DNA from: Cyanidioschyzon merolae
Taxonomy: Eukaryota
Assembly (NCBI GenBank): GCA_000091205.1
Contig: AP006484.2
Reading direction: 5' to 3' (one strand)
Length of the DNA stretch: 64,000 bases
The first letter of the stretch is position 1, and each line of letters opens with the position of its first letter. Both the position numbers and the translations under genes were made by a program. The notes below the pieces were generated by a model. That model was not told the origin of the DNA. It made no database searches and saw only the letters and a list, made by a program, of their open reading frames with translations. Positions 4,458 to 60,462 of the stretch are shown piece by piece.

Positions 4458-4739
4458 GGAACAAAGACCACTACACCCGCTCGAAGAGGATACTTAAATT
4501 TGCGGAGAAACAGATCGCTGCTTGCGCCATGTGCTACCCAATCACCAGTATGAACCATTTTGGAACCTAAATGTATATTTAGTTTCATTATAACCCCATG
4601 GCGGCACGTGCGGAGACTTTTGACCTGATCGTTGCTCCTTGCGTAAGGCGCTTGTAGTCTCCCAAATCAATCGTGCTCAACCCCCAGGTGCAAATAATCA
4701 AATGCTTTTGTCGCGGTTTAAGGCAGATGCATTCGATGG

Positions 4740-5205
4740 GCATTCATTTTCAAAAATTAACAATCCAAGGGAAAGGTATTGGCATGGAAGTCGAGGTTCC
4801 TGAAAGCTTGGTGTTGCCAGATCGGTGAAAAATCGGAAAAAACTTTTCTCCCAACAATCGAGCAAAGAAGAGCCAGTGCTTGAAAAGAAGTTGAAAGGGA
4901 GGCGGTCGAGAAAAAAAGTTTTGCCCAAAGGGACGATGACGAGACTGTAGTGGCACAGAGGGCATGAGTTCTAGGAATCCCTCCACTGGTGCGTACAAGC
5001 AGTAGCTAGAAACGCGTGTAATTCGTGAGCTGCGACTTAACCGCCGCCGTTAACACCAGGAGATGTGCGATGCTGAAGACGAGACCCTCAGAGCTGACGC
5101 GGACGAACTTTGTGGAGCAGCCCTTCTTGGATCGAATTGTACAAGGAGTTGAGGCGGAGAGCATGCTGCCGGTCAAAATGACTGGGAGGAGTCTGCGCGT
5201 GGGTA
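4740..5205 (+). repeat. Diverged relic of the TnpB/Fanzor-like element family (3' portion only)
   Basis: About 470 bp align by eye to 47725-48195 and to the 3' end of repeat B. The translated frame gives ..VSCDLTAAVNTRRCAMLKTRPSELTRTNFVEQP.., compared with NRDFNAAINFRRCALLKTEPEELRRYNFVRQP in repeat B. The conserved nucleotide tail ..ggtcaaaatgactgggaggagtctgcgcgtgggta matches the B1 tail. No intact ORF. Confidence 0.45.
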
Positions 5206-6339: not shown

Positions 6340-7767
6340 CTATGAGTTTTCGGCATAGATATTCGAGGGAAGAAGAATATGAAGGCCAACCTGCCCCAGC
6401 GCCGCCAAGCAGTCCATCTGGGAGGATGTTTCAATCCAATGTGCCTCTTTCGCGGATTTCAAACCCTCGTGCAGAAATAGTAGCTGCGCTGGAATGTCAT
6501 CTACAGAGTCAGACGATGCCAACCCGTCACACTTCCGGTCTAGTCTTGCCGGGTCTTCCTCAAATAGTGGTTCAAGCGACAAGTCCCAGATGCTAACGGA
6601 GCCGTCGCCACATGTCGCACAGAACATCGAAGGCTCGATTCTGTTCCACTCGAGGGAATAGATCGGATCCTTATGGTATGAGAGGCTCGCCACAGGCGTC
6701 GAACCTTCGATACTGCCGCTCATCCGCAGGTCCCACACGTGAATCTGCCCTTGGTCGTCCCCTGATATGATTTGCTTTGGATAGCGGCGGTTCCATGCGA
6801 TGGCGTTGACATCACAGGGATGGGCTTCCGTCAGTTCTATAGCGGGACGATTCGCGGCCCGAAGATCGAGCACTTTAATGGAACGATCGCATGAACAGGA
6901 TGCAATTAGAGACGGCTCCGTTGGACTCCACTGAAGATCTTCGATTGAAGCACCATGTAATCTAAGCATCCTGTCACCGTTCGGTTGCAAAATTGCCCAG
7001 CCCGATTCGTTGCTTTGGATGATAGCGAGCTGACCATATATATCACCGACAGCTAGCATACCGACTTGGAGCGTCGACCAATCCAGGGCGAAACCCTCCT
7101 GGCCACTTCTATCCAGCAACCGAAAGACGGGTTCAGTTGGTAAGGCTTCGCGGAATGGGACCGTATCCGCCGCTTGTGGAGGTAGCGCGGTGAGAGCATC
7201 GGCAAGGTTGAAAATTGACACCCCGGAAGACTCCCCCCAACAGGCTGCAACGTGTGGCGCCTGCGGCAGGCAGCGGACCCTATTCGTGCACTCACCACGT
7301 GGTATCCTTACAGCGCTGATTTTCGGTCGTCGCCTCCTTGTGGATCGGTCATCCGCTCTCTCGAGATCACTCGAGTCAACTACGATTTCACTTTCTGTTT
7401 CAGAATCACTGCCAGAACTGCTGCTCGATCCGTCGCTTGCGGTTAAAGCTAGTCCACTCAAGTGCAAGAGATAAAGAGCATTCGCGTCTGCAAAGCGTGC
7501 CTGCGAGCCTAGCAGGAGCCATAGTTCACCGTCGTCCTTGAAGTTTTCGGGGACGCGGCACCAGTCGAAAGAGAGACAGGGCCACTCCAAGGTAAGCCGA
7601 TGCAGCTGTTTATAAACGCTCAAGTCATAAACAGTCTCCGTAGACTCCGTATACACAGAACCTGTGCCAGTCTTTGTCTTCCTCCTGCAGGAGGTATTCT
7701 TGCTCGCGCTCGTCGAAGGGAAGTTGCTCCGCTGGGCTGCTCCTTTTCGCCGGAGACCTTTTGGCAT
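6340..7767 (-). CDS. GRWD1: Glutamate-rich WD-repeat protein (GRWD1 / yeast Rrb1-like ribosome-biogenesis WD40 protein)
   Basis: The ORF-track start at 7851 is a TTG; the first in-frame ATG is at 7765-7767 (MPKGLRRKGAAQRS). The N-terminal stretch VYDLSVYKQLHRLTLEWPCLSFDW is the conserved GRWD1 N-terminal motif. An acidic/Ser-rich linker follows, then a C-terminal WD40 propeller (IKVLDLRA.., IHVWDLRM.., VSIWDLSLE). Confidence 0.8.
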   Translation of the reverse strand: MPKGLRRKGAAQRSNFPSTSASKNTSCRRKTKTGTGSVYTESTETVYDLSVYKQLHRLTLEWPCLSFDWCRVPENFKDDGELWLLLGSQARFADANALYLLHLSGLALTASDGSSSSSGSDSETESEIVVDSSDLERADDRSTRRRRPKISAVRIPRGECTNRVRCLPQAPHVAACWGESSGVSIFNLADALTALPPQAADTVPFREALPTEPVFRLLDRSGQEGFALDWSTLQVGMLAVGDIYGQLAIIQSNESGWAILQPNGDRMLRLHGASIEDLQWSPTEPSLIASCSCDRSIKVLDLRAANRPAIELTEAHPCDVNAIAWNRRYPKQIISGDDQGQIHVWDLRMSGSIEGSTPVASLSYHKDPIYSLEWNRIEPSMFCATCGDGSVSIWDLSLEPLFEEDPARLDRKCDGLASSDSVDDIPAQLLFLHEGLKSAKEAHWIETSSQMDCLAALGQVGLHILLPSNIYAENS

Positions 7768-7894
7768 GCTGCTTTCGGAGCTAGGCAATAGAGTCGAAAG
7801 GCAAACTATGGACGTCGCTGCATAGCGTCTCAGTCTGCCGGCGAACGCCAATGCTGCTGCACGCAGTCAAAATGGACGCCAGAACCGCATCGAA

Positions 7895-9296
7895 CGTGCA
7901 CTACATGAAATGTTTCCATCCATGGCATTATAGAGCGGAACGAGTTCCAGCGAGGTAAGACGGCCACACACAATCAAGCATGAGCGTCTTCTCGCTGTCA
8001 TCAACACAGGCTTTTGCCGGGTTCTTTGTGACGAGTTCCTTCGTCCCTCCCTTATATCCTTCTTTGAATACGTCGGTCTCCCCTTTCCCTCGGCATCTGT
8101 TGTCCGCAGACGGAGGAGGTTCATGGCAGCGTTACTGTCCAGACTCCGCACGTTCCGACTGTTGGCCGCACACTTCATGCGCACGCAGGCGTTGCAATCT
8201 ATTTATCGCTTACTGCACTCATTTTCTATGTTTACGGCCTCGGTGCGCCTCTCGCAGGGATGACACCTGCTTATGGTGAAATTCCCTCACATTTCCGCCA
8301 CATATTCTATCTAGAGCGCCGCCACGTAGCGCGCGAACGCGTGCTTCATCCGTCGGTATGTGCCCTTGACATGCACAGGAGGCTCTCTTCAGTGCCCCCC
8401 TCTGTTTGGTCGTCTGGTACGGTACCCCACGATCACGGGCTTGCTGTGAGCGATTCCAGGGGTGCGTTTTCTGTCCAGCGCACACGCGAGCACACGTTGT
8501 TCCATTCGATGAAGGATTCGTCGAATGCAATACTATCTCTGATGAAACAAGAGCCGGAAGCAAGGTCGAGACTGAAGAACAATTCGAAACGTTTCGATGC
8601 ATCTACGCTCCGTTCGTGCAACCAGGTGACGCACGCTTCACCCGGGGAGATCACAGCAATGACTAAAGGCCGAGTCCGGGACCCGTTTCCGCGCAAACGG
8701 AAACTGCGGGAGCCCCTGGGCATCATACCCAGTGAGATGTGTGGTGCCGTTGTCGAAAGCCGTTTCGTCGATAGCCACAAAGAGAGGAGGATTTTTCTCG
8801 CGAACGCGATCGATTATTTGACGTGAACAGCCCAGTGAAGTTGCAACACGAGCTTGTGAAATAGCAGTCGAAGGATGGCGTCTTGGCAAGCACTTTTCCT
8901 CGTCCATCCAGGGGCGCGACATGCTGCGCACGCGAGTTGCCCTGAAACAGAAAGATCGAAGACTTGAAGAATGCGTGATCTAGGCATGCTATGTGTAAGC
9001 AAAAGAGAAGTGCCGCGGCACGTACGCGTCGAAATGTTTTACGATATCGGCTATTTTATTAGCCCGCGTTCGAGCGCGTCGCGAACCATTGTGATCATGG
9101 TCATGCGAAGTATTCCCGGGGTAAAGACTCGGAGGCATCACATCGGAAAGACGTCCGCGGATTCTCGACTGTTTGCGAATCCTCACGCGGTTATCGCTGC
9201 TTATCGGATGTCGAGCATGTACATCCCAAAAGTTCGGAAAAAATGAATGGCAAGAATAGAGTACGCATGTCAGTTTCCTTTCTTAATCCAACACGA
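7895..9296. repeat. Dispersed repeat family A, copy 1 (about 1.4 kb, unclassified)
   Basis: It is nearly identical, with only a few substitutions, to 15848-17249 at a constant offset of 7953 bp. The same nested short ORFs (127, 188, 115 and 97 aa) appear in both copies. No TIR or LTR structure is visible. Confidence 0.85.
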
Positions 9297-9930
9297 ATAT
9301 CGAGCTTGAAACCCTGTCCTGGACTCTCTCTCGAACAGAAACATCGTAGGGAGAGTATGGATGAAGGGCCTTTTACGCAATATCTGAATATGCGGAGCAT
9401 CTACCATCGTCAATCTGCATCTTAGGCCTTGGAGTATGCAAACACGATGACCAAGGCGAAGCAGAGCGAACGCGATCGATTTTTCGAAGCGGAACATGAA
9501 AATTTCCACTGTTTAGTGTAGAATCAAAATGGGTTTTCACAAGTTTCCAGCAGTGCAGAACAGTTGGTCTTCATTTTCAACGCAAACGAAGGCGCGGAGT
9601 ACTTGCGTTCCAGTCTATATATTTATTGCACCTACTAAATCGGCCACAACATGGAACAGTAATTTTAACAGTACGGAAAATCACCCTTCCCGCAGAGCTT
9701 ATTCGTCCCGACAAGAGGCCAGCACCTGCTAAACCGTATGGCGAATTCAATCCAAAAATTTTTCTGACTTCCAGCGTCAAGAACGCAGGGCCTACGTATC
9801 TTGAGGTTAAAATGTTCAAGTCGAATTTCACTCGAAATACACGGTTCTCGGGTAAGATAGGAATCAATGGTTCCAGAGTTCTCAAAATCGGGATCGAATA
9901 AACAAAAAGAGTGGGACTGCGATCTTCTTA

Positions 9931-11302
9931 GAGTTTTCATCTCAATTTTGTCGCACCCGCGCTGCGGTGCGTACAAAGAGTGATCGAAATGACTATGCAA
10001 GATACCATAGATATCGAGGTCGGATTGTCCGTAAGTTACATTCTTTACTAAACCGTGCATGGATCGCTGCATTCCTCCTTCAGGTACGTATACCATAATA
10101 TTCAGATGGTTGAGAAGCACTGAAAGAAAGAAGTATATGCACTCCGCGTCGAAAAGCGATATTTCCAGCGACTACTTGGTGGCGATGCTAGAAAATAACC
10201 CGTGGATCGAGTTAGGGAAAGCAAAACCTGCGATAATGGCTGCCACAGGCGTCCTTCTTTCCCACAAGCTTGTTCGTGTGATCCTAGAACACTGGGATAC
10301 AGTCTCAAAGAACGAGTCCTAGTTCATGCGCGGCCATCATCCACCGAAATCGGAACTATAGTGTTCCTGGCACGACGCGATCCGTAGAAAGCAGAAGATC
10401 GTCGGTTTGTTTTTTCAGTCGATGAGACTTGCTTCGGACGACACGGTCGGAGCGTATATGGGCGTTCGTGGAGCAGGGCACCCATTGTGTGTATCATCTA
10501 ACTCGAAGAGAACGATCACATCATCATCTGTTCTAGATGCAGTGGATTCATTTGGCGGCCTCAGTTTCGCTCGTGGTGGAGGCTCATGCAACAGCACCCT
10601 CTTCTTTGAATCATTGAAGACTTTTCCCTGATGTCAAGCGTAGTCCTGCTATCGGACAGCGTGACATTTTACCATTCCCTTGCGATCGAGCCTCTGCCGA
10701 TTTTATCCGGATAGGTCTGCTTGCCATTCCTCCGTGCTCTCCGTGACTAAACCCCATCGAAGAAGCGCTTTCTATCGTGAAACGTAACCATCGCTCCATT
10801 GGGTGAAGCGCTGAAGCGTTCAGCACACGGTGACACACCAGGGCACATGTCGTCTCGCTTCCGCAAGTCCTTCTTGATCCGTGAAGATCCTCACTTAAGG
10901 GCATGAAGAAGTGTGTTCGTTTTGAAGAAATACAATACCCGAGAGATGAGCTGGGGTGCACACTTCAGAACGTCGAGATGAAGAAAAGCCAGCGGAGCGC
11001 TTCGCTGGTAGAAAAGCACGGAGTGTTGAGAGAGCAGCAAATGGCGCAGACGGCACGTGTTCGAGGAATCCCGCCACAGTTGTGCTCAACGAGAGGCAAA
11101 AAAAACGCATGAAATTCTTGAACCGAGACTTCAATGCCGCTATCAATTTCAGACGGTGTGCGTTGCTGAAGACGGAACCCGAGGAGCTGAGGAGGTATAA
11201 CTTTGTGCGGCAGCCTCTCCCGGCGGAAGTCTATGAGGTGAAGATGAAAACGATAGCAGTGGGCCGGTTGAAAGAGACTGGGAGTTGTCCGCGAATGGGT
11301 AT
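9931..11302 (+). mobile_element. Repeat family B, copy 1: non-autonomous or decayed TnpB/Fanzor-like (IS200/IS605 OrfB-type) element
   Basis: 9931-11284 is about 99% identical to 23941-25294 (offset 14010). The 3' part encodes a RuvC-III-like motif (LNRDFNAAINF). There is no TIR. A subterminal hairpin CGCACC-n8-GGTGCG sits at 9952-9971. The family-level 3' end, to about 11302, is defined by its alignment with the relics at 5.2 kb and 48.2 kb. Confidence 0.7.
9952..9971. other. Subterminal stem-loop at the left end of repeat B (6-bp stem CGCACC / GGTGCG, 8-nt loop); the same structure is at 23962-23981
   Basis: A direct reading of tcgcacccgcgctgcggtgcgtac; it lies about 20 bp inside the repeat boundary. 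Confidence 0.6.
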
Positions 11303-11399
11303 TAGTTCACCTTGGAAAGAACTGAAACTATCGCTCCACCGATCGTATGCAGCGGCCGCTTTGTGCGTTCCCTCTTTTCAATATATTGAGGCAAAATAA
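10950..11399 (+). pseudogene. TnpB/Fanzor-like nuclease C-terminal fragment (RuvC-III region), frameshifted upstream
   Basis: Translation: ..CSRNPATVVLNERQKKRMKFLNRDFNAAINFRRCALLKTEPEELRRYNFVRQPLPAEVYEVKMKTIAVGRLKETGS. D-R-D-x-N-A-A-x-N-[IF] is the OrfB zinc-ribbon / RuvC-III signature of TnpB, Cas12 and Fanzor proteins. Upstream frames contain only scattered Cys and stop codons, with no WED, REC or RuvC-I/II region. Confidence 0.55.
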
Positions 11400-12703
11400 C
11401 ACTCCGGAGGAGCTTTGATAGTTCGCTTTCGTCTGAAGACTTTCATCAGAGTACAGTGGGCTCACTGTTTGAAGCTCTCGCTGAAGATAGCACTTATCAG
11501 TCATTGATTGCAACCGTTCCCAAGATCGGATATCGACTGTTCGGAGATGATCTTGTTCCCGGTACTATTGGGCATGCTTAAAAATACTTCCGCACACTAG
11601 CGCACTTTACGGAGCAGATTTTCGTCCCGCTGCAGCTGAATCTCTATGGAAGTATCACAATTTTAGAGGAGCCGCAAGAAACCCAGCACCACTCATTACT
11701 ACGAGGGAGCTCTTTCCATTCGAAGCACGCGTTCGACCTGCGTTTGCCTCGCACGCGTAAGCGTGACGGCTGACGCGCTCCTACAGCAGCGACTCTCCAT
11801 ACTCAGGGCTGCTGGGCCTTTGAAGAGCATCAACGGGCGGCCAGAATAGAAGACACATCGCATGTAAGGCGTCCGACATGCGCTGTCCGCATGCTCTATG
11901 TCGTGAAAATACCAATATCGAACCAGGAAACAAGCACTCCGAACATCATGGGCATCGAGCAACGACTACAGCGAAGACCTTTCCACGCATGAGACTAACC
12001 TTTTCAATCCAGCCCGAAAATGGAATTTCATTCAGTAGAAAAACCGTGAAGTACACGCTTGTCTCGGTTATATATGCATGCAAGCATTCATGTGTGCGAG
12101 CACTCGCGCATCTACGAGCAGCCTCTTGGTGATAGAAGCGGCACACCATCCCGCTGTGGCAAGCCGGCAGTTGGATCCACGAGACCTCGAGCTGATGCGC
12201 TTGAAAGCGCACAGTGCAGCCGTTCTACCACCATGAAGCGATCGCGGCTGGAGCGCCGCAAGCATCCACGATGCGCCGGGTACATTCAAGGTAGCTGGAT
12301 CAAGCAAGCGTTTCCCTCAAACGGGAAGGCTAATTCGGTGCTGGTGTATTGTAGGTACTTCTGTGAGGGAGCAGAGGTCTCGTCCCTGGTACTGGCAGGA
12401 TGCGCGTTCATGCGAGAATATGGACACATGTATCCTTGCCACCCTAGTAGACTCGGACGGCCAGAGGCGCGTCGCGCACCGATTCCGGTCTGTGGATCCG
12501 GGAGATGCGCTCGCATGCTGTCGATTGGGTTCTGCAGCCACAGTCGTCCAGAATACGGATCGCTGACTTTTGCGGTGTATCTATTTTTAGGTTCTAAGGA
12601 TTCGGGTGTTTTTTTGCGAGTTGTGGTTCACTTACAGCATAGACACGCCGTAAACGCTTGTCGCGCGCGGCACCTGTCGAACGTCCGAACTTTTTACAAT
12701 CCT

Positions 12704-15016: not shown

Positions 15017-15847
15017 GATCCAAGATACGAGTGAAGTTTAGCCAAGGTTTTCAGTGCTCTGCGTCATGGTCGAGCTGCGTTAAACAGAAGAAACTTGTTT
15101 TGTCAAATTTAACTAGACACCTAGGTGGACCACGGCGTCTCGCGGGATTCGGATGAGTAGTTCTGTGGCTCGCCTCGACTGTATCAATCCGCTGGTCGAC
15201 GTAGCCTCCATGAACTTGACGAGGATTCTGGCAACGCAGGGATAAAGAGCGGTCTCGTTTCCTCGAAAGACGCTCGTTACGAAAGTAGCATTCATTGGGA
15301 GAAAGCCGCTAAATCAGAGTTGACGTTGAATGCTGCTCGCTCAGGTCTTTTGTGCTCCCTGCTGAGCATTAACTCGCTTTAGAGTTCCGACATTTTCGGT
15401 CAATTTCCGCTATTTCATCCGCTTATTTCTGGCAAACTTTTCCGCTCTGAGCTGCTTTCGATCTGGGTAGCCAGCGTTTATCCCGTGCGAGAATCGCTTC
15501 TCACAGGAAGCCACAGATTGCTGTTCTCGACCAACGGAATGTCCGTATGACAGTAAACCTGTGGGACGCAGAAACCAGCTCGTTCCAGGCTGTGCAAATC
15601 GCTACTTTGTATGGTTTAAGTTTGATGAATCCTCTCTGAATCCTCTATACATGCAAATGCGAAAACCCGGCTTTCAGGAAAGGAACCGTAGATCCTCCGC
15701 AGAAACCTACATATACCACAAGCTCCTGACTCGTATCAGCGCCAGCAATAGAGTTAAGATCGACCAAGCGTGCCTTCTAGAATCGGGCTCGCTGTAAAAG
15801 CTCTAAATGGCACTGGATGCGCTGCGGCATGCGATACTCGAAGAGCA

Positions 15848-17249
15848 CATGCACTGCATGAAATGTTTCCATCCATGGCATTATAGAGCGGAACGAGTTC
15901 CAGCGAGGTAACACGGCCACACACAATCAAGCATGAGCGTCTTCTCGCTGTCATCAACACAGGCTTTTGCCGGGTTCTTTGTGACGAGTTCCTTCGTCCC
16001 TCCCTTATATCCTTCTTTGAATACGTCGGTCTCCCCTTTCCCTCGGCATCTGTTGTCCGCAGACGGAGGAGGTTCATGGCAGCGTTACTGTCCAGGCTCC
16101 GCACGTTCCGACTGTTGGCCGCACATTTCATGCGCACGCAGGCGTTGCAATCTATTTATCGCTTACTGCACTCATTTTCTATGTTTACGGCCTCGGTGCG
16201 CCTCTCGCAGGGATGACACCTGCTTATGGTGAAATTCCCTCACATTTCCGCCACATATTCTATCTAGAGCGCCGCCACGTAGCGCGCGAACGCGTGCTTC
16301 ATCCGTCGGTATGTGCCCTTGACATGCACAGGAGGCTCTCTTCAGTGCCCCCCTCTGTTTGGTCGTCTGGTACGGTACCCCACGATCACGGGCTTGCTGT
16401 GAGCGATTCCAGGGGTGCGTTTTCTGTCCAGCGCACACGCGAGCACACGTTGTTCCATTCGATGAAGGATTCGTCGAATGCAATACTATCTCTGATGAAA
16501 CAAGAGCCGGAAGCAAGGTCGAGACTGAAGAACAATTCGAAACGTTTCGATGCATCTACGCTCCGTTCGTGCAACCAGGTGACGCACGCTTCACCCGGGG
16601 AGATCACAGCAATGACTAAAGGCCGAGTCCGGGACCCGTTTCCGCGCAAACGGAAACTGCGGGAGCCCCTGGGCATCATACCCAGTGAGATGTGTGGTGC
16701 CGTTGTCGAAAGCCGTTTCGTCGATAGCCACAAAGAGAGGAGGATTTTTCTCGCGAACGCGATCGATTATTTGACGTGAACAGCCCAGTGAAGTTGCAAC
16801 ACGAGCTTGTGAAATAGCAGTCGAAGGATGGCGTCTTGGCAAGCACTTTTCCTCGTCAATCCAGGGGCGCGACATGCTGCGCACGCGAGTTGCCCTGAAA
16901 CAGAAAGATCGAAGACTTGAAGAATGCGTGATCTAGGCATGCTACGTGTAAGCAAAAGAGAAGTGCCGCGGCACGTACGCGTCGAAATGTTTTACGATAT
17001 CGGCTATTTTATTAGCCCGCGTTCGAGCGCGTCGCGAACCATTGTGATCATGGTCATGCGAAGTATTCCCGGGGTAAAGACTCGGAGGCATCACATCGGA
17101 AAGACGTCCGCGGATTCTCGACTGCTTGCGAATCCTCACGCGGTTATCGCTGCTTATCGGATGTCGAGCATGTACATCCCAAAAGTTCGGAAAAAATGAA
17201 TGGCAAGAATAGAGTACGCATGTCAGTTTCCTTTCTTAATCCAACACGA
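15848..17249. repeat. Dispersed repeat family A, copy 2
   Basis: Collinear and about 99% identical to 7895-9296. It diverges from copy 1 immediately outside these coordinates. Confidence 0.85.
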
Positions 17250-23940: not shown

Positions 23941-25294
23941 AGTTTTTCATCTCAATTTTGTCGCACCCGCGCTGCGGTGCGTACAAAGAGTGATCGAAAT
24001 GACTATGCAAGATACCATAGATATCGAGGTCGGATTGTCCGTAAGTTACATTCTTTACTAAACCGTGCATGGATCGCTGCATTCCTCCTTCAGGTACGTA
24101 TACCATAATATTCAGATGGTTGAGAAGCACTGAAAGAAAGAAGTATATGCACTCCGCGTCGAAAAGCGATATTTCCAGCGACTACTTGGTGGCGATGCTA
24201 GAAAATAACCCGTGGATCGAGTTAGGGAAAGCAAAACCTGCGATAATGGCTGCCACAGGCGTCCTTCTTTCCCACAAGCTTGTTCGTGTGATCCTAGAAC
24301 ACTGGGATACAGTCTCAAAGAACGAGTCCTAGTTCATGCGCGGCCATCATCCACCGAAATCGGAACTATAGTGTTCCTGGCACGACGCGATCCGTAGAAA
24401 GCAGAAGATCGTCGGTTTGTTTTTTCAGTCGATGAGACTTGCTTCGGACGACACGGTCGGAGCGTATATGGGCGTTCGTGGAGCAGGGCACCCATTGTGT
24501 GTATCATCTAACTCGAAGAGAACGATCACATCATCATCTGTTCTAGATGCAGTGGATTCATTTGGCGGCCTCAGTTTCGCTCGTGGTGGAGGCTCATGCA
24601 ACAGCACCCTCTTCTTTGAATCATTGAAGACTTTTCCCTGATGTCAAGCGTAGTCCTGCTATCGGACAGCGTGACATTTTACCATTCCCTTGCGATCGAG
24701 CCTCTGCCGATTTTATCCGGATAGGTCTGCTTGCCATTCCTCCGTGCTCTCCGTGACTAAACCCCATCGAAGAAGCGCTTTCTATCGTGAAACGTAACCA
24801 TCGCTCCATTGGGTGAAGCGCTGAAGCGTTCAGCACACGGTGACACACCAGGGCACATGTCGTCTCGCTTCCGCAAGTCCTTCTTGATCCGTGAAGATCC
24901 TCACTTAAGGGCATGAAGAAGTGTGTTCGTTTTGAAGAAATACAATACCCGAGAGATGAGCTGGGGTGCACACTTCAGAACGTCGAGATGAAGAAAAGCC
25001 AGCGGAGCGCTTCGCTGGTAGAAAAGCACGGAGTGTTGAGAGAGCAGCAAATGGCGCAGACGGCACGTGTTCGAGGAATCCCGCCACAGTTGTGCTCAAC
25101 GAGAGGCAAAAAAAACGCATGAAATTCTTGAACCGAGACTTCAATGCCGCTATCAATTTCAGACGGTGTGCGTTGCTGAAGACGGAACCCGAGGAGCTGA
25201 GGAGGTATAACTTTGTGCGGCAGCCTCTCCCGGCGGAAGTCTATGAGGTGAAGATGAAAACGATAGCAGTGGGCCGGTTGAAAGAGACTTGGAG
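23941..25294 (+). mobile_element. Repeat family B, copy 2 (TnpB/Fanzor-like relic); its 3' end is about 20 bp shorter or diverged relative to copy 1
   Basis: About 99% identical to 9931-11284. The hairpin CGCACC-n8-GGTGCG sits at 23962-23981. After ..aaagagact the sequence differs from copy 1 and from the other family members. Confidence 0.7.
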
Positions 25295-25304
25295 GCGCCT
25301 CTGA
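24960..25304 (+). pseudogene. TnpB/Fanzor-like RuvC-III fragment (copy 2)
   Basis: Same translation as in copy 1 (..RMKFLNRDFNAAINFRRCALLKTEPEELRRYNFVRQPLPAEVYEVKMKTIAVGRLKET), then it terminates (..WRRL*). Confidence 0.55.
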
Positions 25305-27982: not shown

Positions 27983-28155
27983 GTGCTTCGACCTCTATCG
28001 AGGTATTGTAATCCTTAGATATTGTCAGACTGACGGCTGAGGCGGAACTGCTTACAGCAGCAAATCTCTGCCCTTCGGCACGCTTACACCAGTGCAAGCT
28101 CTTGTATCTGTAACGGCATCTGCTGTGTCTCTTCTTCGTGTTTTCCCGCAGGAAC

Positions 28156-30372
28156 TCGACAAAAAGATTTCACCCCGTACATTCGAGAAAGGTCACGTAA
28201 GCACTACATGATGTCAGTGCTTGCATTTGAAAAACGAACTTACTTTCACATGCAAGTCATTCTACGAACGGCGGGTACAGGAACCACCCTTCTCGTAGTC
28301 CACATACTACGTGGTGTGCATCCAAAATAGAACTTATCAAACTCGCTATCGACGACTGTTTCCTCGTCAATCCTTTCCGTGCGATACGTTCTTCACGAAA
28401 CGCTACCAAGGAAGCAACAGTGCGGCAACTTTACGCAACGCTGATACGAACGGTGGAGAACAGACACGGATGGAAAAAGTAAGATGTATGCCTCTATGGG
28501 AGAGCGGTGCGCGTTGCTCACCGAACTATCAGAGTCGCACCCAAATACAAAAGCTTATTGCCGCAGCAACGAATGTTCGTCTCACTCGACGAGACTTCAG
28601 ACGTAGTAGATCTGCATGAGGGCACTCGAAGAGGGCCCCATTGTCGCCCGTGCAGAATAGACGAGCGAGCATTCCGACAACGTCAGCCCTGGCGATGATT
28701 CCACTGCTTGGTCGCCTACGAATCGAGAAAAGCACAGGGTAGTTCGGCAACGCTTCTCGTCACCTAAGCAGTTCGTGGCTCCCCGTTACCGCTATCTTCC
28801 ATCCTGCTCTTTTACAGCGTTGCTTTCCGTCATCCAAAGGCGGTCCAGGAGCACGTGCCCGAGACTGGCATTGAGCGACTATTTGTGCCTGCCGATTCTC
28901 CGAGATTCGATCCTATGAAAGGCATCTTCTCTGCTGAGAAACGCCAATATACGCTCCCGGATCGATAGTCGAGTCGTTCGCATCCGTGGAACCGTCCGTC
29001 GACGAGTCCTTCCGTGCTGGTACTATCCCGGAACTGGGCTGCTGACCCTCTGCTCGAGCCAGGAAGTGAGCGGAAGGGCTCGCTTCGGTCGCACCGCCGG
29101 CCCAGTACCAGTGAGTCCCGAGGGATAACATTCGGATGTAGCGTATAGGAGAAAAACCCACGGAGAGACGAGATCAACCTGCAACCATGGTCAAGGCACT
29201 CCTACGAAAACACATCACCTGGTAGAATCTCTCCCAAAGTGAGACGCTGGACGTTGTTTAGCGAAAAATGCCTCCTACTCTGGGAAGATTCGTCTTCCTT
29301 CTCTCGCCTTGACACACATCCTCAAGCGACTGTTGGTAGGATTGTAGGAGACAGGACGGGCAGCTGTCCAGAGTCTGCCGTTACGTATTCAGTCCAACCC
29401 TGGTGCGACAACTGATGCTCTCGATGGAAGACGGAATACATACCCGGCTTTTCTATGGCTGTATCTCATCGAGAGTCGGGCATGTTCGACGCTACGAGGC
29501 GCACCAGCAAGCGGAATGTCGGCGTCACGACCTGTCTTGACACACTGGGCTTCGCATCGAGCAGGGAATGATGCTCCAGACGCCTCTCATAGAGTATACA
29601 TGATCGTCCGGATGGGTCATACGGGCGCACTTTGGCTAAAGCACATGCATCCGTGTTGAGGTCGCCAACGTTTCCGGTTATTCGGAGGGGAAAAACGTGC
29701 ACTCGCAACTCTCTCGTTGCATTCGATGAGGAATTGGCAGACGTGTTGCGTCTGTTCTTTGGTTGTAGCCTACGGCGCTGGATATGCTGTTGGGCGCGAG
29801 GGTCGCACTCGTGCCGCATGTGGAGCACACAAAGAGTGCAGCAACCCATGCTGCACGATGCCCGTCTTTGCGTACAGGACGGCATACATATATTGCGAGC
29901 ACAGGTGCGCACTGAAACCTGCACGGGAGAAGAGCGTGAATCGACGCTGGATGCACGGGATGTCGCACAAAAAGCTGACCGAAGGTCAGGTTACGAGAAC
30001 ATTGACCGTGGGCGGCTTGGCTTGGTGTGATTCGACCAGGAACAACGCGCACAAGCACTTGCTGCAGCATGACTTGAAGGTTTCGATCAGCAGTCGGGAC
30101 TATCCCACGCTTCCAAAGCGACCAGCGGCTTTATCTTCGGAGGAATTTGGAGGGAGTCCTTTCGCAGCTAGTGTGGGCATTGTGCTGGAACGCTGAAGGC
30201 TTGCGATGAAGAAAAGCAGTATCGGCCAGGAGAGAGGGTCGGGTTTCCATCCGAAGCAACGCACAAGGATGATGTCGTCAGCGACCCAGATATGCTAGAG
30301 CGCCGAATGCGTACACCGAGAATGATTTACCATGGCAATCGGTGAAAGATAAATATGGTCCATTATTCGAAA
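28156..30372. repeat. Dispersed repeat family C, copy 1 (about 2.2 kb, unclassified, no long ORF)
   Basis: About 99% identical to 58246-60462 at a constant offset of 30090. It starts TCGACAAAAAGATTTCACC and ends ..TGGTCCATTATTCGAAA. The 11-bp inverted repeat at 28232-28264 has one mismatch in this copy. No TSD, TIR or LTR is evident. Confidence 0.85.
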
Positions 30373-47334: not shown

Positions 47335-47724
47335 GGGAGCCCGTGCGTTGCGTTTCCGTGCGTCGCCTTGCCTTGCTCAGCTTTTCGGAGGACCTTGGAA
47401 TACAGAACCCTTTCTTCCCAGTAGCGCGCACGGATGTGCAATGCTCGCGGGAAATCGTTATTTGGCGCGAAATCGCTAGTCGACAGCGGCGCTGCCGGCG
47501 GGGTCTCGCTGCTCAGCCATCGCCATGGGTCGTAACCTAAAGAATCCCAATTGTACATTTATAACCCTAATTGTACATAAATCGCTTCCTCGAAGGCCAT
47601 GGACCGTATCGCGAGGGAATTCGGCCCTTCATCGTCAGGGTCCTTGTACTCTTCCAGTTCAGTTGTGTTCCATCCCAGGTGCGTGTCAAAAAACGCTTTT
47701 TCGTGGTTTCTAACAGATATACTC

Positions 47725-48195
47725 GAAGTGCATTCATTAGAGGAAATAAAAAATGCAAGGGGAAGGTATGGACGCAGAAGTCAGGGATACTGGAGGACCG
47801 TCAATGCCGGATACAAAAAATGTAGGGATTCCTCTTCCGACCGAGTATCGACTGAAGTAGAGCAACTAAAAAAGAAGCAGAAGAAGGGACACAGACGAGA
47901 AAATGTGCTACTTCACGGGATGATGACCAGACTTTGATGGCACAGAGGGCACACGTTCGAGGAATCCCTGCCATGGAGAGTTGAACCAGAGGCAACCAAC
48001 GCATGGATTTCGTGAACCGAGACTTCAGCGCCGCCATCAATATCAGACGATTTGTGACGTTGAAGAAGAGACTCGAGGAGCTGACGTGGGCAAATTTTGT
48101 CCGGTAATCTCTCATGCTCGAAGTGTACAAGGAGAAGCTGAAGCCGACTTCAGGAGGCCGGTTGAAAAAGGCTGGAGTAGGCTGGGAGTGGATAT
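47725..48195 (+). repeat. Diverged relic of the TnpB/Fanzor-like element family (3' portion), homologous to 4740-5205 and to the repeat B tail
   Basis: The translated frame gives ..TRGNQRMDFVNRDFSAAINIRRFVTLKKRLEELTWANFVR*, the RuvC-III motif, then ..LEVYKEKLKPTSGGRLKKAGVGWEW (compare B: AEVYEVKMKTIAVGRLKETGS). The nucleotide tail ..ggccggttgaaaaaggctggagtaggctgggagtgga is conserved with B1. Confidence 0.5.
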
Positions 48196-50077
48196 TCTTT
48201 TAACCCTCGGTTTCGAAACTTTCTCGCTCCATTGCCCGAATACGATAAAACAGTTAGATGTTCGCTCTGCTCCTGCATGTAAATAGTTTATCCAGAATTT
48301 TCTGACGTGTACGGCCTCGACAATCGATGTGTAGCGATATGGTCTTGCGGATTGAATCGTGGTCGAAGGACCCGCGGTGGTATTTTCGGAATGACACGTT
48401 TGCAGCTTGGCCGGGGATATTCGATATGTCACCGGAAGCAAGATGATTCGTGACGTATTCGAATAAAGGTTCGTAAAATAACCGACATGGTCATCCAGTG
48501 GATATGTAGAAACCTCTACAATTCTGTTTTATGTACGCCCAGCATGGTAAAACCATGCATTGTCCTAGTTTTCGTGCTTGCAATCTCAAGCAAACTCGTG
48601 GGTGCAGCCATTCGAGCCGCAGATTGGATGGCGAGATGAGTCGACCTCTTCCCTCAACTACTAGTTTTCATGCTCGTGCCCATGGTCAATTGAACTCCTG
48701 CGCCAAATAATCGATTTCATTCGAAAAACAAATCCGCCAACGGTGACATCTACAGAATGGTTACCCGCTGCAGCATGAGACCCCCATGGGGTATGCTCCT
48801 CGAGGCTGCCGTCTCGTCTGATTCGCTCGAAAACGGTCATAGGCTCGGACTTTAGTTATCATAAAAACCGCTGCCATCGGAGAGAGCGTCACAGAATTGC
48901 AGGAAGCAAGCGTGAAGGGATCGAAAGTTCTCGACTTGTTCGCCAGCCTCGAGTTCCTTTTCTGTGTAGGTTTCGTCTTCGATAACACCGCGAACCACGA
49001 ATTCTCTATCAAATGGAACGACATCCGCTTCCATATACAGCTGATATACTACTCGGGGAGAAAATCGCCCAGAAAAAGTATGTGATTGCAGGGTACGGCA
49101 GCAAGCGTTGAAACAGATGAGGGCATCGAGGCGAGCCTTCTGTAACAGTCAAGTTCATGGATGGAGCAACGAATCAAGGCTCCATGCTCCGCAGGGCAGC
49201 GCTCGTAGGTGGAGACGATTTGGCGCCCATATAGGGATACTTGACTACAGCCAAGTGTGACCATTGCGTAGAAAACACCTAGCCTGTGCGCAAAGAAGAT
49301 GAAGATGGCAAGCGAGGCGTAGATCGAAGCATCCGCCTGCCCATGAACTGTGTTGACAACCACCGAAAGAGGAAAAATTGTATTCCAAGATCATCATCAA
49401 AATCTTTCAACTGTTAACAACGGAGTTGGAGAAAAAACAGACCGGCTTCATTAAATCCAGAGTTCCGAGAGAGAAGCTGAAGCAGTCGCAGAAAAAGAAG
49501 GCGAAGGCTATTCGGGATGGCAATTGGAACAGACCCAAATTTTCAGCGTGTACGCCTTACATAGCTAAATGGACTCATTCCAATGTACTCAAATATCGAT
49601 ACAGAACTTGCCGCATTCAGCGGAGCTGCGCCAGGTCGGGACCGCCTCCGTCAAAAAACGCTTCGCTACGTGCGAACCTCGAACCGCTGTCGAGTGGCGA
49701 TAAAAGGAGATGGTCTCTTTCTTTGGACAGTTTCTACCAGCTGTCCGCTAGATAGCGCTACGTTGCTTTTGATTCGCCGAGATTTCATTCGCTCACGGCG
49801 TAGTGCAGGTCTCAGATCCATGCTATGTTTAAATTGACTCTGGAAAGTTCTTGCGTTTGAACGCCATTGCGACAGGGCGAGCGCTCTGCTCGATGATGCT
49901 TCCGATAGGGGATGGATCCAACCAGCTACGAATGTATTGTAGTCCTCGGCCGGCGCAATAGTATCCTTTTATCATTTCGAATTGGAAAGAGCGCAGTGCA
50001 AAACTGCGTGCTATTCTCGTCGCAGCCTACTGGCCGAAAATCTGGAATGAGAATGATTGTTGGCGTTTGGACCCATA

Positions 50078-57088: not shown

Positions 57089-58245
57089 ATCGCTGTCTAG
57101 TCTCGTAGTAGCTGGTCGGCGGTAACACGCCTAACTATGAAACGATGTCGGCTGATATACGGCCAGGAGAAGCCGAACAACGTTTGCGGCACTTGGGCGC
57201 CTGCCGGGAGCGGTGAACCAGCTGGCCGCTTCTGGAGAAGCATCGAACGTTTAAACAGAATGAATCACTTTGCGCATTCGATAAAAAGTACTCCCGATAT
57301 CGCCAGTATTTCACTGTTCGGCGATTTTGCTGTTGGTCGCTTCGAGCCGGGCTCAGTGAGCGAATTTCAGAGGAATATTGCTCTAAGGCTGGCAAGTGCG
57401 TGTATCCGCGAAAGACAAGAGCTACGTTCCGCTAGATACCGATTCCATTCTTCCATTCAGCGATATCGGAAGTAGACGCATCGATCCTGAACGATACGGT
57501 AGACAGGCACGGCTCTTCCGCCTTGGATCGACTCCCGCGAGCTGATTTAAAGTTGCAATCAGCATCTGGTAGCCCTCGTGGAGTCGAGATGCGGTTTTTG
57601 GTACACTACTGAAGCTTGTTACCTCTTTCCGGCGTATTAAGAGCGTTCAAGCGCTGCGTGAGAGGCCAAAGCTTCCCTCTAATGAGCTGATGCGTACCTT
57701 GGACACATCATCGAAGACGTACTTGGCAGAAAGCGCGGCAATATGGATGCTAAATCGCTGTACGTGTATTCGAATCCATAAAAGCGCATCATAAAGGAAT
57801 AACGTATGTTCCTGATGCGTTAAAGCACAGGCAATACATCCTGCGCGAGAAACTCTCGTGCCATCCTTTACGGGGTCAAGATAATATTTCCGCTCATTCC
57901 GCTGGCATAGCGGGGAACTGGTACGCAAAGCTTCCATTGGCAGACAGGTGCTCTTGCTGCGAATTGTACAGCGAATATGTGGAACTCGATGCCCCTGATA
58001 TTCCCGAAGAGAATAAGCCAAATGGAATGCCAGTTTTGTAGTCAGCCGGGTGCAGCTTATACCGGCCATTGCGGAACCGGAAGCGTGGCAACGTGGCCAA
58101 CGCATATGCTGAAACGTTCCTGGAATATTGGATCCATCAAAAGTGGCATCTGCGATACCGCGAAAAGGTATGCTCACTGGAATGGGTTTTGAAATACCTA
58201 GAACGGCACGCATCGTTTGCCTTCTCTGATTCCCGTCGCCGGTAT

Positions 58246-60462
58246 TCGACAAAAAGATTTCACCCCGTACATTCGAGAAAGGTCACGTAAGCACTACATG
58301 ATGTCAGTGCTTGCATGTGAAACACGAACTTACTTTCACATGCAAGTCATTCTACGAACGGCGGGTACAGGAACCACCCTTCTCGTAGTCCACATACTAC
58401 GTGGTGTGCATCCAAAATAGAACTTATCAAACTCGCTATCGACGACTGTTTCCTCGTCAATCCTTTCCGTGCGATACGTTCTTCACGAAACGCTACCAAA
58501 GAAGCAACAGTGCGGCAACTTTACGCAACGCTGATACGAACGGTGGAGAACAGACACGGATGGAAAAAGTAAGATGTATGCCTCTATGGGAGAGCGGTGC
58601 GCGTTGCTCACCGAACTATCAGAGTCGCACCCAAATACGAAAGCTTATTGCCGCAGCAACGAATGTTCGTCTCACTCGACGAGACTTCAGACGTAGTAGA
58701 TCTGCATGAGGGCACTCGAAGAGGGCCCCATTGTCGCCCGTGCAGAATAGACGAGCGAGCATTCCGGCAACGTCAGCCCTGGCGATGATTCCACTGCTTG
58801 GTCGCCTACGAATCGAGAAAAGCACAGGGTCGTTCGGCAACGCTTCTCGTCACCTAAGCAGTTCGTGGCTCCCCGTTACCGCCATCTTCCATCCTGCTCT
58901 TATACAGCGTTGCTTTTCGTCATCCAAAGGCGGTCCAGGAGCACGTACCCGAGACTGGCATTGAGCGACTATTTGTGCCTGCCGATTCTCCGAGATTCGA
59001 TCCTATGAAAGGCATCTTCTCTGCTGAGAAACGCCAATATACGCTCCCGGATCGATAGTCGAGTCGTTCGCATCTGTGGAACCGTCCGTCGACGAGTCCT
59101 TCCGTGCTGGTACTATCCCTGAACTGGGCTACTGACCCTCTGCTCGTGCCAGGAAGTGAGCGGAAGGGCTCGCTTCGGTCGCGCCGCCCGCCCAGTACCA
59201 GTGAGTCCCGAGGGAGAACATTCGGATGTAGCGTATAGGAGAAAAACCCACGGAGAGACGAGATCAACCTGCAACCATGGTCAAGGCACTCCTACGAAAA
59301 CACATCACCTGGTAGAATCTCGCCCAAAGTGAGACGCTGGACGTTGTTTAGCGAAAAATGCCTCCTACTCTGGGAAGATTCGTCTTCCTTCTCTCGCCTT
59401 AACATACATCCTCAAGCGACTGTTGGTAGGATTGTAGGAGACAGGACGGGCAGCTGTCCAGAGTCTGCCGGTACGTATTCAGTCCAACCCTGGTGCGACA
59501 ACTGATGCTCTCGATGGAAGACGGAATACATACCCGGCTTTTCTATGGCTGTATCTCATCGAGAGTCGGGCATGTTCGACGCTACGAGGCGCACCAGCAA
59601 GCGGAATGTCGGCGTCACGACCTGTCTTGACACACTGGGCTTCGCATCGAGCAGGGAATGATGCTCCAGACGCCTCTCATAGAGTATACATGATCGTCCG
59701 GATGGGTCATACGGGCGCACTTTGGCTAAAGCACATGCATCCGTGTTGAGGTCGCCAACGTTTCCGGTTATTCGGAGGGGAAAAACGTGCACTCGCAACT
59801 CTCTCGTTGCATTCGATGAGAAATTGGCAGACGTGTTGCGTCTGTTCTTTGGTTGTAGCCTACGGCGCTGGATATGCTGTTGGGCGCGAGGGTCGCACTC
59901 GTGCCGCATGTGGAGCACACAAAGAGTGCAGCAACCCATGCTGCACGATGCCCGTCTTTGCGTACAGGACGGCATACATATATTGCGAGCACAGGTGCGC
60001 ACTGAAACCTGCACGGGAGAAGAGCGTGAATCGACGCTGGATGCACGGGATGTCGCACAAAAAGCTGACCGAAGGTCAGGTTACGAGAACATTGACCGTG
60101 GGCGGCTTGGCTTGGTGTGATTCGACCAGGAACAACGCGCACAAGCACTTGCTGCAGCATGACTTGAAGGTTTCGATCAGCAGTCGGGACTATCCCACGC
60201 TTCCAAAGCGACCAGCGGCTTTATCTTCGGAGGAATTTGGAGGGAGTCCTTTCGCAGCTAGTGTGGGCATTGTGCTGGAACGCTGAAGGCTTGCGATGAA
60301 GAAAAGCAGTATCGGCCAGGAGAGAGGGTCGGGTTTCCATCCGAAGCAACGCACAAGGATGATGTCGTCAGCGACCCAGATATGCTAGAGCGCCGAATGC
60401 GTACACCGAGAATGATTTACCATGGCAATCGGTGAAAGACAAATATGGTCCATTATTCGAAA
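58246..60462. repeat. Dispersed repeat family C, copy 2
   Basis: About 99% identical to 28156-30372. Here the subterminal hairpin is perfect: TGCATGTGAAA-n11-TTTCACATGCA at 58322-58354. Confidence 0.85.

Follow-up and report, generated by a model that had tools for sequence, protein, structure and literature searches.

A dead mariner-type transposon with a Fanzor1 remnant, present as two near-identical copies in the genome of Cyanidioschyzon merolae

The window analysed here is a stretch of 64,000 nucleotides of Cyanidioschyzon merolae 10D, which shows exact matches to the proteins BAM78886 to BAM78896. It contains two copies of a 1351-bp sequence, referred to as repeat B, in which a transposase pseudogene is followed on the same strand by the C-terminal fragment of a Fanzor1 nuclease gene. 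The following features were assigned, with positions given for the whole window:

9934..11284, + strand: repeat B copy 1 (B1), a dead transposase pseudogene and then a Fanzor1 C-terminal fragment, delimited by self-BLAST
9934..9987, + strand: 5' non-coding leader, which contains a hairpin at 9947-9978
9988..10800, + strand: pseudogene of an IS630/Tc1-mariner (DDE_3) transposase, disrupted by two or more frameshifts and three or more in-frame stops
10801..10935, + strand: deletion junction, marking the loss of the last part of the transposase, of the spacer and of Fanzor1 codons 1 to ~607
10936..11292, + strand: C-terminal fragment of Fanzor1, divided between two frames (residues 608-664 and residues 654-723) by a frameshift in an A-run at ~11097-11106
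11124..11147 (copy 2: 25134-25157), + strand: RuvC-III motif RDFNAAIN, the sole surviving catalytic motif of the nuclease
11285..11400, + strand: tail of the old element at locus 1, which lies outside the near-identical block and resembles other old family copies
23944..25294, + strand: repeat B copy 2 (B2), organised internally like copy 1 at an offset of +14,010 bp (remnant of the transposase 24096-24810, Fanzor fragment 24946-25300, motif 25134-25157)

Self-BLAST and direct comparison revealed that the two copies align without gaps and are 99.93% identical, the single mismatch being a G at 11280 versus a T at 25290. The offset between the copies is 14,010 bp, and both boundaries are sharp, with flanks reading ..TTAGAG-B-TTGTCC.. 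and ..TGAAGT-B-GCGCCT... An earlier note on this DNA had described a near-identical pair about 14 kb apart; the pair is real, and the coordinates given at the time (9931-11302 and 23941-25294) were off by 3-18 bp. Neither a terminal inverted repeat (TIR) nor a target-site duplication (TSD), TA or other, was found at repeat B, and its 3' boundary falls within the Fanzor ORF, at codon 723 of 734. An Rfam search over positions 7500-12000 gave no match, and exact-protein look-ups with three ORFs inside or overlapping B retrieved no record. An assembly artefact was considered as the origin of the repeat and rejected, because independent metagenome or SRA contigs span all four junctions: L004 and L005 the left and L001 and L003 the right junction of B1, L001 and L002 the left and L012, L014 and L015 the right junction of B2.

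Judged from its sequence, the first ~950 bp of repeat B, two thirds of the element, is not IS200/IS605-like, as had been proposed, but a transposase pseudogene of the IS630/Tc1-mariner type. In tblastn, the intact 300-aa transposase of the metagenomic relative L007 (DDE_3, Pfam E = 1e-27) matches with aa 30-269 at 10086-10800, colinear over three frames, with E = 3e-14 and 1e-10. One raw frame matches Pfam DDE_3 with E = 6.7e-4, and a stitched translation reaches E = 1.9e-7 and 31.5 bits (cut-off 28.6) against the same profile and E = 9.4e-10 against the NCBIfam IS630 transposase; these best scores come from stitching by hand, of which the raw frame and the tblastn matches are independent. Motifs that can still be made out are FVFSVDETCFGRHG (first D), VVLLSDSVTFYHS and PPCSP*LNPIEE. 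A word-based homologue search with the stitched protein retrieved nothing. Pfam scans of all six frames of B for a Y1 (HUH) TnpA found DDE_3 only.

The last ~350 bp of repeat B corresponds, with a frameshift, to the ~120 codons at the 3' end of the Fanzor1 CMe-1. It can be aligned by blastn with positions 2737-3084 of the CMe-1A consensus at 70% nucleotide identity, and tblastn with the published CMe-1 protein recovered aa 608-723 with E = 1e-10 and 5e-18 and an amino-acid identity of 52-57%. A profile built from 15 family proteins matches positions 10950-11396 with E = 1.9e-15 and 1e-8. Together with the tblastn result, this bears out the proposal that the 3' end descends from a TnpB/Fanzor-type nuclease gene. 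Between the fragment and the family consensus, dN/dS is 0.35 over 116 codons; the amino-acid-level conservation whose absence the earlier note had taken to speak against its claim is therefore found. The peptide ..KKRMKFLNRDFNAAINFRRCALLK.. is encoded at 11100-11170 and 25110-25180. The RuvC-III motif, previously claimed for the 3' ends, is present in both copies and nowhere else: in the six frames of the whole window, the pattern [RH]D.N[AS]A.N occurs only at 11124 and 25134, with 0.01 occurrences expected per shuffled window. The motif of B aligns with NRDFNAAINI of CMe-1 and NRDMLSTCNM of SpuFz1.

Little else of the nuclease can be recognised. A complete catalytic set including the RuvC-I Asp and the RuvC-II Glu was not found in one ORF of B, and upstream of 10936 neither CMe-1 residues 1-607 nor any family protein has a match. 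The possibility that the 5' kilobase of B hides a diverged Fanzor N-terminus was excluded, as tblastn and blastx searches with CMe-1 and 43 family proteins were empty; a tblastx comparison of this kilobase with the window also returned nothing. The Pfam search that had been suggested as a check gave no match at E <= 10, either for the ORFs or for the reconstructed C-terminus. Even intact relatives reach just E = 0.23 (PF07282); thus, Pfam is blind to this family and the PF07282 test has low power. With the same low power, no C4 zinc ribbon (PF07282) was detected between RuvC-II and RuvC-III, and the fragment retains one Cys of the pair present in the family consensus. With one frameshift in the Fanzor piece, besides the frameshifts and in-frame stops upstream, the copies are indeed too broken to encode the whole nuclease. 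Since only RuvC-III is left of the nuclease and the transposase is broken, B encodes neither protein.

SpuFz1, the Fanzor1 of Spizellomyces punctatus (PDB 8GKH), is an RNA-guided DNA endonuclease. It was the only PDB match of the 15-protein family profile at E <= 10 (E = 4e-4); a profile is needed here, as phmmer with an intact member against the PDB sequences found nothing. Foldseek with a model of the member P0082 returned Fanzor structures as the first seven matches (E = 2e-10 to 2e-6), followed by Cas12m2 with E = 0.6. The ranking of these matches was used rather than the TM-scores (0.24-0.33), because the model is of low confidence (pLDDT 53.5). The profile and the predicted structure thus independently support the Fanzor identity of the family.

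The likely layout of the ancestor can be read from three metagenome contigs, L007, L016 and L017, which do not stem from 10D. In these, a TIR, a DDE_3 transposase gene, a Fanzor1 gene and a second TIR lie within 3.4-3.5 kb, and the TIRs are 28 nt (L007), 32 nt (L016) and 41 nt (L017) long and start with TA. Relative to these intact relatives, ~1.9-2 kb is deleted in B; an internal deletion would have removed the remainder of the transposase together with Fanzor1 codons 1 to ~607. Neither the transposase nor any Fanzor protein matches the sequence at 10801..10935. The region between the 3' UTR and the TIR of the intact relatives, where Fanzor guide RNAs are encoded, is absent from the repeat unit. 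The leader extends over 54 nt before the transposase ATG at 9988, and the distance from the start of the TIR to the ATG is 53 nt in L007; the leader probably represents the eroded 5' terminus of the transposon from which B descends. Its hairpin at 9947-9978 has a DNA folding energy of -12.4 kcal/mol (z = -2.2, 5 of 200 shuffles being as good), and folding of the 3' end revealed no hairpin (z = +0.7). Of the end traits that had been described as IS200/IS605-like, the absence of TIRs therefore stands, and the subterminal hairpin stands, in modest form, for the 5' end only. By analogy with known families, the transposase of the intact ancestor would have moved the element by cut-and-paste at TA sites through the TIRs, and Fanzor1, together with an RNA from the 3' end of the element, would have cleaved matching DNA. 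Repeat B itself is dead and internally deleted.

Further members of the family are located in the window:

4651..5205, + strand: older, internally deleted copy, in which consensus 800-969 is joined to 2840-3088 and the motif has decayed to SCDLTAAVN
28147..30372, + strand: repeat C copy 1, another relic in which the two-gene layout recurs, with a transposase pseudogene at 28231-28950 and a Fanzor1 remnant (aa 53-143 of P0121 at 29154-29423, aa 460-702 at 29467-30193)
47643..48196, + strand: older copy with an internal deletion as in 4651-5205, 67% identical to that copy, motif NRDFSAAINI
58237..60462, + strand: repeat C copy 2, 98.8% identical to copy 1

In repeat C copy 1 the RuvC-III motif is lost, and the gene order of repeat C, transposase and then Fanzor1, is that of L007, L016 and L017. 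Like B, the nearby repeats A and C form near-identical pairs (98.8-99.4%). Past 11284 and 25294, both B loci show weak and mutually diverged similarity to other family copies. At locus 1, the tail is identical to the copy at ~5189 in 12 of 18 anchored positions (p = 5e-5) and to the copy at ~48178 in 17 of 27 (p = 5e-5), and these three tails align mutually. At locus 2, an anchored ungapped comparison of the 27 nt after 25294 with another family copy gave 15 of 27 identities (p = 2.5e-4), and local alignments and an nhmmer profile of the three family tails were not significant downstream of this copy.

We conclude, with a probability of about 0.8, that repeat B is a non-functional relic of a Tc1/mariner-IS630 (DDE_3) transposon which carried Fanzor1 downstream of its transposase on the same strand, and that its copies owe their identity to gene conversion or segmental copying. 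The identification of the relic is firm; the mechanism of homogenisation, which we infer, is the weaker step. It draws on a comparison of strains by way of metagenome contigs assembled from short reads, a procedure that collapses identical repeats. Of the 1351 positions of B, 13 separate 10D from the Ga0080006 population, whereas B1 and B2 of 10D differ at only 1. Ga0080006 contigs from both left junctions (L001 and L004) share four SNPs, and the paralog-specific G/T (11280/25290) is kept in other samples, with G in L001 and L003 and T in L012, L014 and L015. The recurrence of B1, B2 and the paralog-specific SNP in strains that differ by ~1% in B indicates homogenisation by gene conversion. 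L001 enters B at the flank of one copy and leaves it at that of the other, a path which is absent from 10D and is probably an assembler route through the collapsed repeat. A search for an empty site found none, as the candidate, again L001, threads through B. The identity of 99.93% most likely goes back to gene conversion between two older paralogous relics, or to a local segmental copy, and fresh transposition is an unlikely cause.

A simpler origin by segmental duplication alone, in which B2 would have arisen by replication- or repair-associated copying of part of the locus 1 relic, with no prior relic at locus 2 and no conversion, is possible but doubtful. It would fit the sharp boundaries and the lack of a TSD, and three direct repeat pairs are clustered within 64 kb. 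The locus 1 tail clearly continues the old element beyond 11284, and B1 therefore looks like the source, whereas the family-tail profile misses the sequence downstream of B2. However, the 27 nt after 25294 do match a family copy, and the 5' boundary falls at the terminus predicted for the transposon, a position that a random breakpoint would rarely hit. Moreover, the divergence between strains far exceeds that between the paralogs, although the strains share both copies.

The earlier note had proposed very recent transposition or duplication. In one reading of this kind, B would be a non-autonomous element that an intact mariner-type transposase from another place in the genome mobilised very recently in trans, and the two copies would be fresh insertions; we regard this as improbable. 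The identity of the copies and the similar state of repeats A and C would be explained, intact two-gene relatives exist in metagenomes, and the 5' boundary of B lies close to the predicted transposon terminus (54 versus 53 nt before the ATG). A fresh insertion is nevertheless difficult to reconcile with the lack of a 3' TIR and of any TSD and with a 3' boundary inside the Fanzor ORF. In addition, the 5'-terminal 24-mer of B occurs only twice in the window, a metagenome scan with the 5' 22-mer found two contigs, both from the B1 locus, with no sign of further copies, and both copies are present in strains that differ from 10D by ~1%. Very recent transposition thus appears doubtful, and the strains suggest an older duplication kept identical by gene conversion.

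A far more speculative extension of the gene conversion reading, to which we give very little credence, is that active homing holds the dead relics identical. An intact Fanzor1 elsewhere in the genome would cut variant copies, which the efficient homologous recombination of C. merolae would then repair from the paralog. If so, the concerted evolution of B, and perhaps of A and C, would record eukaryotic gene conversion triggered by RNA-guided DNA breaks. In a weaker variant, the joins x-B-s (L001) and MYB-C-CLN3 (L008) may be real recombination between repeats in natural populations.

Domestication, with either the 147-codon ORF at 10956-11399 or an RNA transcribed from B as the functional product, is hardly credible. 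One SRA assembly (L003) preserves this open frame exactly, and the dN/dS of 0.35 could be read as constraint, but the latter reflects descent from a coding gene. Furthermore, the ORF begins at a GTG inside a frameshifted gene, lacks RuvC-I and RuvC-II, has no Pfam or Rfam match and ends beyond the repeat, with a C-terminus not shared by copy 2; the guide-RNA region of Fanzors, from the 3' UTR to the TIR, is likewise outside the conserved block. The weakest alternative, an IS200/IS605-like OMEGA derivative mobilised as single-stranded DNA by peel and paste via subterminal hairpins, would explain the missing TIR and TSD, the modest 5' hairpin and the TnpB-type RuvC-III motif, but is already contradicted by the DDE_3 remnant that fills two thirds of B, the absence of a Y1/HUH signal on either strand and of a 3' hairpin, the intact mariner-type relatives with TIRs of 28-41 nt starting with TA, and the finding that Fanzor1 rides eukaryotic DNA transposons rather than IS605 elements (PMC3627910, PMC10530073).

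As a Fanzor discovery, repeat B carries little weight, because the Fanzor1 of the C. merolae genome was published in 2013 (PMC3627910) and Fanzors of Rhodophyta were catalogued again in 2023; the interest for Fanzor biology that the earlier note had seen has thus been overtaken. The only new point is that the Fanzor1 elements of C. merolae are, on sequence grounds, of the mariner type. This assigns the Fanzor1 elements of red algae to the Tc1/mariner-IS630 (DDE_3) type: two independent relics, B and C, and three intact metagenomic relatives show the transposase-then-Fanzor1 layout; the 2013 paper had left CMe-1A unclassified. A second implication is that near-identity of repeats in a small, recombination-proficient genome need not imply recent transposition. 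Dead copies seem to have been homogenised, which matters when transposon activity is dated by repeat identity.

Among known systems, the closest is the Fanzor1 family CMe-1 with its element CMe-1A, which was described in C. merolae in 2013 with ~150 copies (Bao & Jurka, Mobile DNA 4:12, PMC3627910) and listed as "classification unknown" without a transposase. Both share the genome, and the 3' ~350 bp of B corresponds to consensus 2737-3084, i.e., residues 608-723 including NRDFNAAINI; neither has TIRs or an identifiable TSD. However, B is 70% identical to the consensus, compared with ~80% for typical copies, and covers 11% of its 3169 bp, while the other 1000 bp of B is unmatched and contains the DDE_3 transposase pseudogene instead of the TE-N2-like 5' region.

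Mariner-type Fanzor1 transposons are represented by PUl-1 and PUl-2 of Pythium and ROr-1 and ROr-2 of Rhizopus, and Mariner/Tc1 associations were also reported by Jiang et al. 2023 (PMC10530073). As in these, the transposase lies upstream of Fanzor1 on one strand, and the elements of L007, L016 and L017 are 3.4-3.5 kb long, with TIRs starting with TA; in contrast, B is deleted, frameshifted and without TIRs, and belongs to a red-algal host lineage. Its transposase and that of the oomycete PUl-1 are only distant relatives, the tblastn comparison of the latter with B giving E = 0.6.

SpuFz1 resembles the family through the profile match, which extends from the WED/RuvC region to the RD motif, and as the top structural match, but sequence identity is 12-14%; B keeps just what follows RuvC-II and yielded no identifiable guide RNA region. 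With IS200/IS605 TnpB (OrfB) and OMEGA systems, B shares the RuvC-III signature (R)D-x-N-A-A-x-N after the zinc-ribbon region; it lacks a Y1 TnpA, a subterminal hairpin pair and a match to Pfam OrfB_Zn_ribbon or Cas12f1-like TNB, and the mobility machinery of its element is a eukaryotic cut-and-paste DDE transposase. Compared with IS630/Tc1-mariner DDE_3 transposases (PF13358, NF033545), the frame of B is destroyed, its score is 38 bits against an NCBIfam equivalog cut-off of 100 bits, and it has no TIR or TA duplication; nevertheless, it is colinear over profile positions 4-135 of 146 and 80-277 of 299, and both the DE(T) and the NPIE motifs are present.

Repeat B is a direct repeat whose copies, B1 (9934-11284) and B2 (23944-25294), align by self-BLAST over 1351 bp without gaps and with a single mismatch (11280 G versus 25290 T), which confirms the pair of about 99% identical 1.35-kb copies described in an earlier note. 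Both edges of the repeat are abrupt; no target-site duplication (TSD) was found around either copy, and no terminal inverted repeat (TIR) was found in B, as the note had stated. Of the subterminal hairpin, the 5' part stands: a GC-rich hairpin lies 14-45 nt inside the 5' edge (z = -2.2), and none was found at the 3' end. B1 and B2 encode the peptide KKRMKFLNRDFNAAINFRRCALLK, and the motif [RH]D.N[AS]A.N is unique to them in the six-frame translation of the window (0.01 expected by chance). Independent contigs from metagenomes and one SRA run cross all four junctions, which rules out an assembly artefact. The window has a G+C content of ~50-55%, and six of its long ORFs are identical to annotated C. 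merolae 10D proteins (range BAM78886 to BAM78896) encoded on a chromosome of 457,013 bp.

The Fanzor1 family of the C. merolae genome has already been described by Bao & Jurka 2013 (PMC3627910). Its consensus element CMe-1A comprises 3169 bp, is represented by about 150 copies with ~80% identity, encodes the 734-aa protein CMe-1 and was reported to have no TIRs, an undetermined TSD and a 'classification unknown' (PMC3627910). Comparison of the supplementary CMe-1A and CMe-1 sequences (PMC3627910) with the window revealed 70% identity between 10946-11292 and consensus positions 2737-3084, and CMe-1 residues 608-664 and 654-723 match B in two frames (tblastn, E = 1e-10 and 5e-18), including ELGCTLQ.VEM and NRDFNAAIN. 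A search with the CMe-1A consensus protein yielded 43 homologues, every one from metagenomes or SRA assemblies; a family profile built from 15 of these picks up the B fragments (E = 1.9e-15 and 1e-8) and, elsewhere in the window, only four other relics. Against PDB sequences, the sole match of this profile at E <= 10 is the Spizellomyces punctatus Fanzor 8GKH (E = 4e-4), with an alignment reaching through to the RD motif. The AlphaFold model of the family protein P0082 is poor (pLDDT 53.5); its top seven Foldseek hits in the PDB are all Fanzors (E = 2e-10 to 2e-6), followed by Cas12m2 (E = 0.6). The TnpB/Fanzor-type 3' end proposed earlier is thus borne out by the CMe-1 and profile matches. 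A Pfam search, one of the proposed checks, gave no match with the Fanzor fragment of B; its power is low, as an intact family member scores only E = 0.23 against PF07282. Pfam is blind to this family, and this check alone would wrongly refute the Fanzor reading. The other check, amino-acid-level conservation, speaks for the proposal: over 116 codons aligned with the CMe-1A consensus, pS (0.54) is twice pN (0.27) and dN/dS is 0.35, and the frame therefore has a coding history.

The first ~1000 bp of B have no match to CMe-1A or any Fanzor protein. Their forward frames hold IS630/Tc1-mariner transposase-like pieces (FVFSVDETCFGRHGRSVYGRS, VVLLSDSVTFYHS and PPCSP*LNPIEE), and one raw frame matches Pfam DDE_3 (E = 6.7e-4). 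A stitched translation, in which the frames were joined colinearly by hand, scores 31.5 bits against DDE_3 (gathering threshold 28.6; E = 1.9e-7; profile positions 4-135 of 146) and matches the NCBIfam 'IS630 family transposase' (E = 9.4e-10; positions 80-277 of 299). Independently of stitching, the DDE_3 transposase of the metagenome contig L007 (Pfam E = 1e-27), whose intact 300-aa ORF directly precedes the gene for the Fanzor1 protein P0121, matches 10086-10800 colinearly in three frames (tblastn, E = 3e-14 and 1e-10). This ORF (L007 nt 56-958) is absent from the gene calls of the source annotation. A Y1 transposase signal was found on neither strand; given the DDE_3 remnant, the IS200/IS605-like reading of the earlier note falls.

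L007 and two further metagenome contigs carry apparently complete, TIR-bounded elements:

L007 nt 3-3456: DDE_3 transposase and Fanzor1
L016 nt 420-3810: DDE_3 transposase and Fanzor1
L017 nt 304-3804: DDE_3 transposase and Fanzor1

In these elements of 3.4-3.5 kb, the DDE_3 gene directly precedes the Fanzor1 gene in the same orientation, and the best inverted repeat of each contig, which starts with TA, encloses the gene pair (28, 32 and 41 nt in L007, L016 and L017). The Fanzor1 proteins (P0121, P0122 and P0123; 662-702 aa) are 31-43% identical to CMe-1. Of the three transposase ORFs, only that of L016 is broken, those of L007 and L017 being open. In oomycetes, fungi and other organisms, Fanzor1 is known to be carried by autonomous Mariner/Tc1-type elements (PMC3627910; PMC10530073). 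B represents this two-gene layout with an internal deletion: about 2 kb, from the transposase end to Fanzor codon ~607, are missing. To within a few bases, its 5' edge probably coincides with the former end of the transposon, because the distance to the transposase ATG is 54 nt, versus 53 nt in L007.

Related sequences are found elsewhere in the window:

28147-30372 and 58237-60462: repeat C pair, direct, 2226 bp, 98.8% identical, 30 kb apart
7894-9296 and 15847-17249, also 19690-19938 inverted: repeat A pair, 1403 bp, 99.4% identical
4651-5205 and 47643-48196: old copies, ~555 bp, 67% identical
37463-37669, minus strand: short DDE_3 transposase remnant (L007 transposase, tblastn E = 1.5e-4)

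Outside B, the L007 transposase matches only repeat C, the short remnant and, weakly, repeat A. Repeat C, likewise a dead relic with a transposase and Fanzor1, belongs to another subfamily, for which P0121 is the closest match (36% aa). In it, a transposase pseudogene is followed by Fanzor1 sequence of the P0121 type (residues 53-143 and 460-702); the two-gene layout is therefore observed twice in the 10D genome. Repeat C retains an inner portion of the 3' TIR (TCCATTATTC), and its copies differ in the last ~12 nt. Repeat A ends 637 bp before B1; relatives of its core (8471-9090), 65-67% identical, occur in the window as well as in contig L006, and its minus strand weakly resembles the L007 transposase (E = 0.07; 1.9e-4 in L006). 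The old copies have a common deletion joining CMe-1A consensus ~800-969 to 2840-3088, and the deletion derivative itself therefore once multiplied. The short remnant sits in the spacer between an ENTH-domain gene and a JEMMA-like histone demethylase gene (38386-40590). Another copy of this demethylase gene elsewhere on the chromosome (BAM78866 versus BAM78896, same 90% cluster) indicates that a larger segment has been duplicated. Positions 31649-31865 form a short, imperfect tandem duplication (68-bp offset, 74% identity).

B is a long-dead relic, yet its copies differ at 1 of 1351 positions. With moderate confidence, the strain comparison suggests that they are under concerted evolution by gene conversion, because both copies appear to predate the strain split yet are identical within a genome. 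In the Ga0080006 population, the left-junction contigs of B1 (L004) and B2 (L001) have four SNPs in common versus both 10D copies; B differs from 10D at 13 of 1351 positions, a divergence like that of the flanks (about 0.6-0.9%), in a comparison that rests on short-read assemblies, in which identical repeats are collapsed. The sole base that distinguishes the paralogs (G at B1, T at B2) is kept in other samples. In L001 compared with 9934-11284, all 13 differences lie within the first 725 bp and the last 625 bp are free of them (p about 3e-4 for an even spread), which could mark the boundary of a conversion or recombination tract. Conversion between B1 and B2 would likewise account for the end of the identity near the element ends. 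Confidence is held at this level because of the collapsing of repeats and two cross-flank paths: L001 (JGI Ga0080006_1121216) runs from the SEL1 side (B2 flank) through B to the SPX side (B1 flank), and L008 (JGI Ga0506598_000017) from MYB through C to a CLN3-like gene, skipping 30 kb. Either the assembler threaded through collapsed repeats at these joins, or wild populations contain real recombinants. The main alternative to conversion is a plain segmental duplication. Past 11284, locus 1 agrees with two other old copies at 12/18 and 17/27 positions (p = 5e-5 each), and the old element plainly continues there; at locus 2, the next 27 nt match another family copy at 15/27 (p = 2.5e-4) and are only 48% identical to locus 1, and a small profile of family tails did not confirm an element tail. 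Very recent transposition, as proposed in the earlier note, is unlikely: the 3' edge of B falls at codon 723 of 734, within the Fanzor ORF, neither TIR nor TSD is present, and both copies appear to predate the strain split.

B has no function now, because its transposase frame is destroyed and its nuclease lacks RuvC-I, RuvC-II and most of the protein; the copies are indeed too broken to encode a whole nuclease. The guide RNAs of characterised Fanzor systems are encoded in the region from the 3' UTR to the TIR; this region falls outside the conserved block of B, and an Rfam search of 7500-12000 gave no match.

The Fanzor1 remnants of the C. merolae genome have been published (PMC3627910); new here are only the mariner/IS630 classification of the red-algal family and the hint of concerted evolution. 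B shares none of the specific features of IS200/IS605 and fits the CMe-1A consensus at its 3' end only. It is a Fanzor1 by homology and by its RuvC-III motif, but falls short of one in completeness and in its zinc ribbon/Pfam match, and the repeat unit lacks the region in which a guide RNA would be encoded. Present B works like nothing; its ancestor probably worked like the Mariner-type Fanzor1 transposons.
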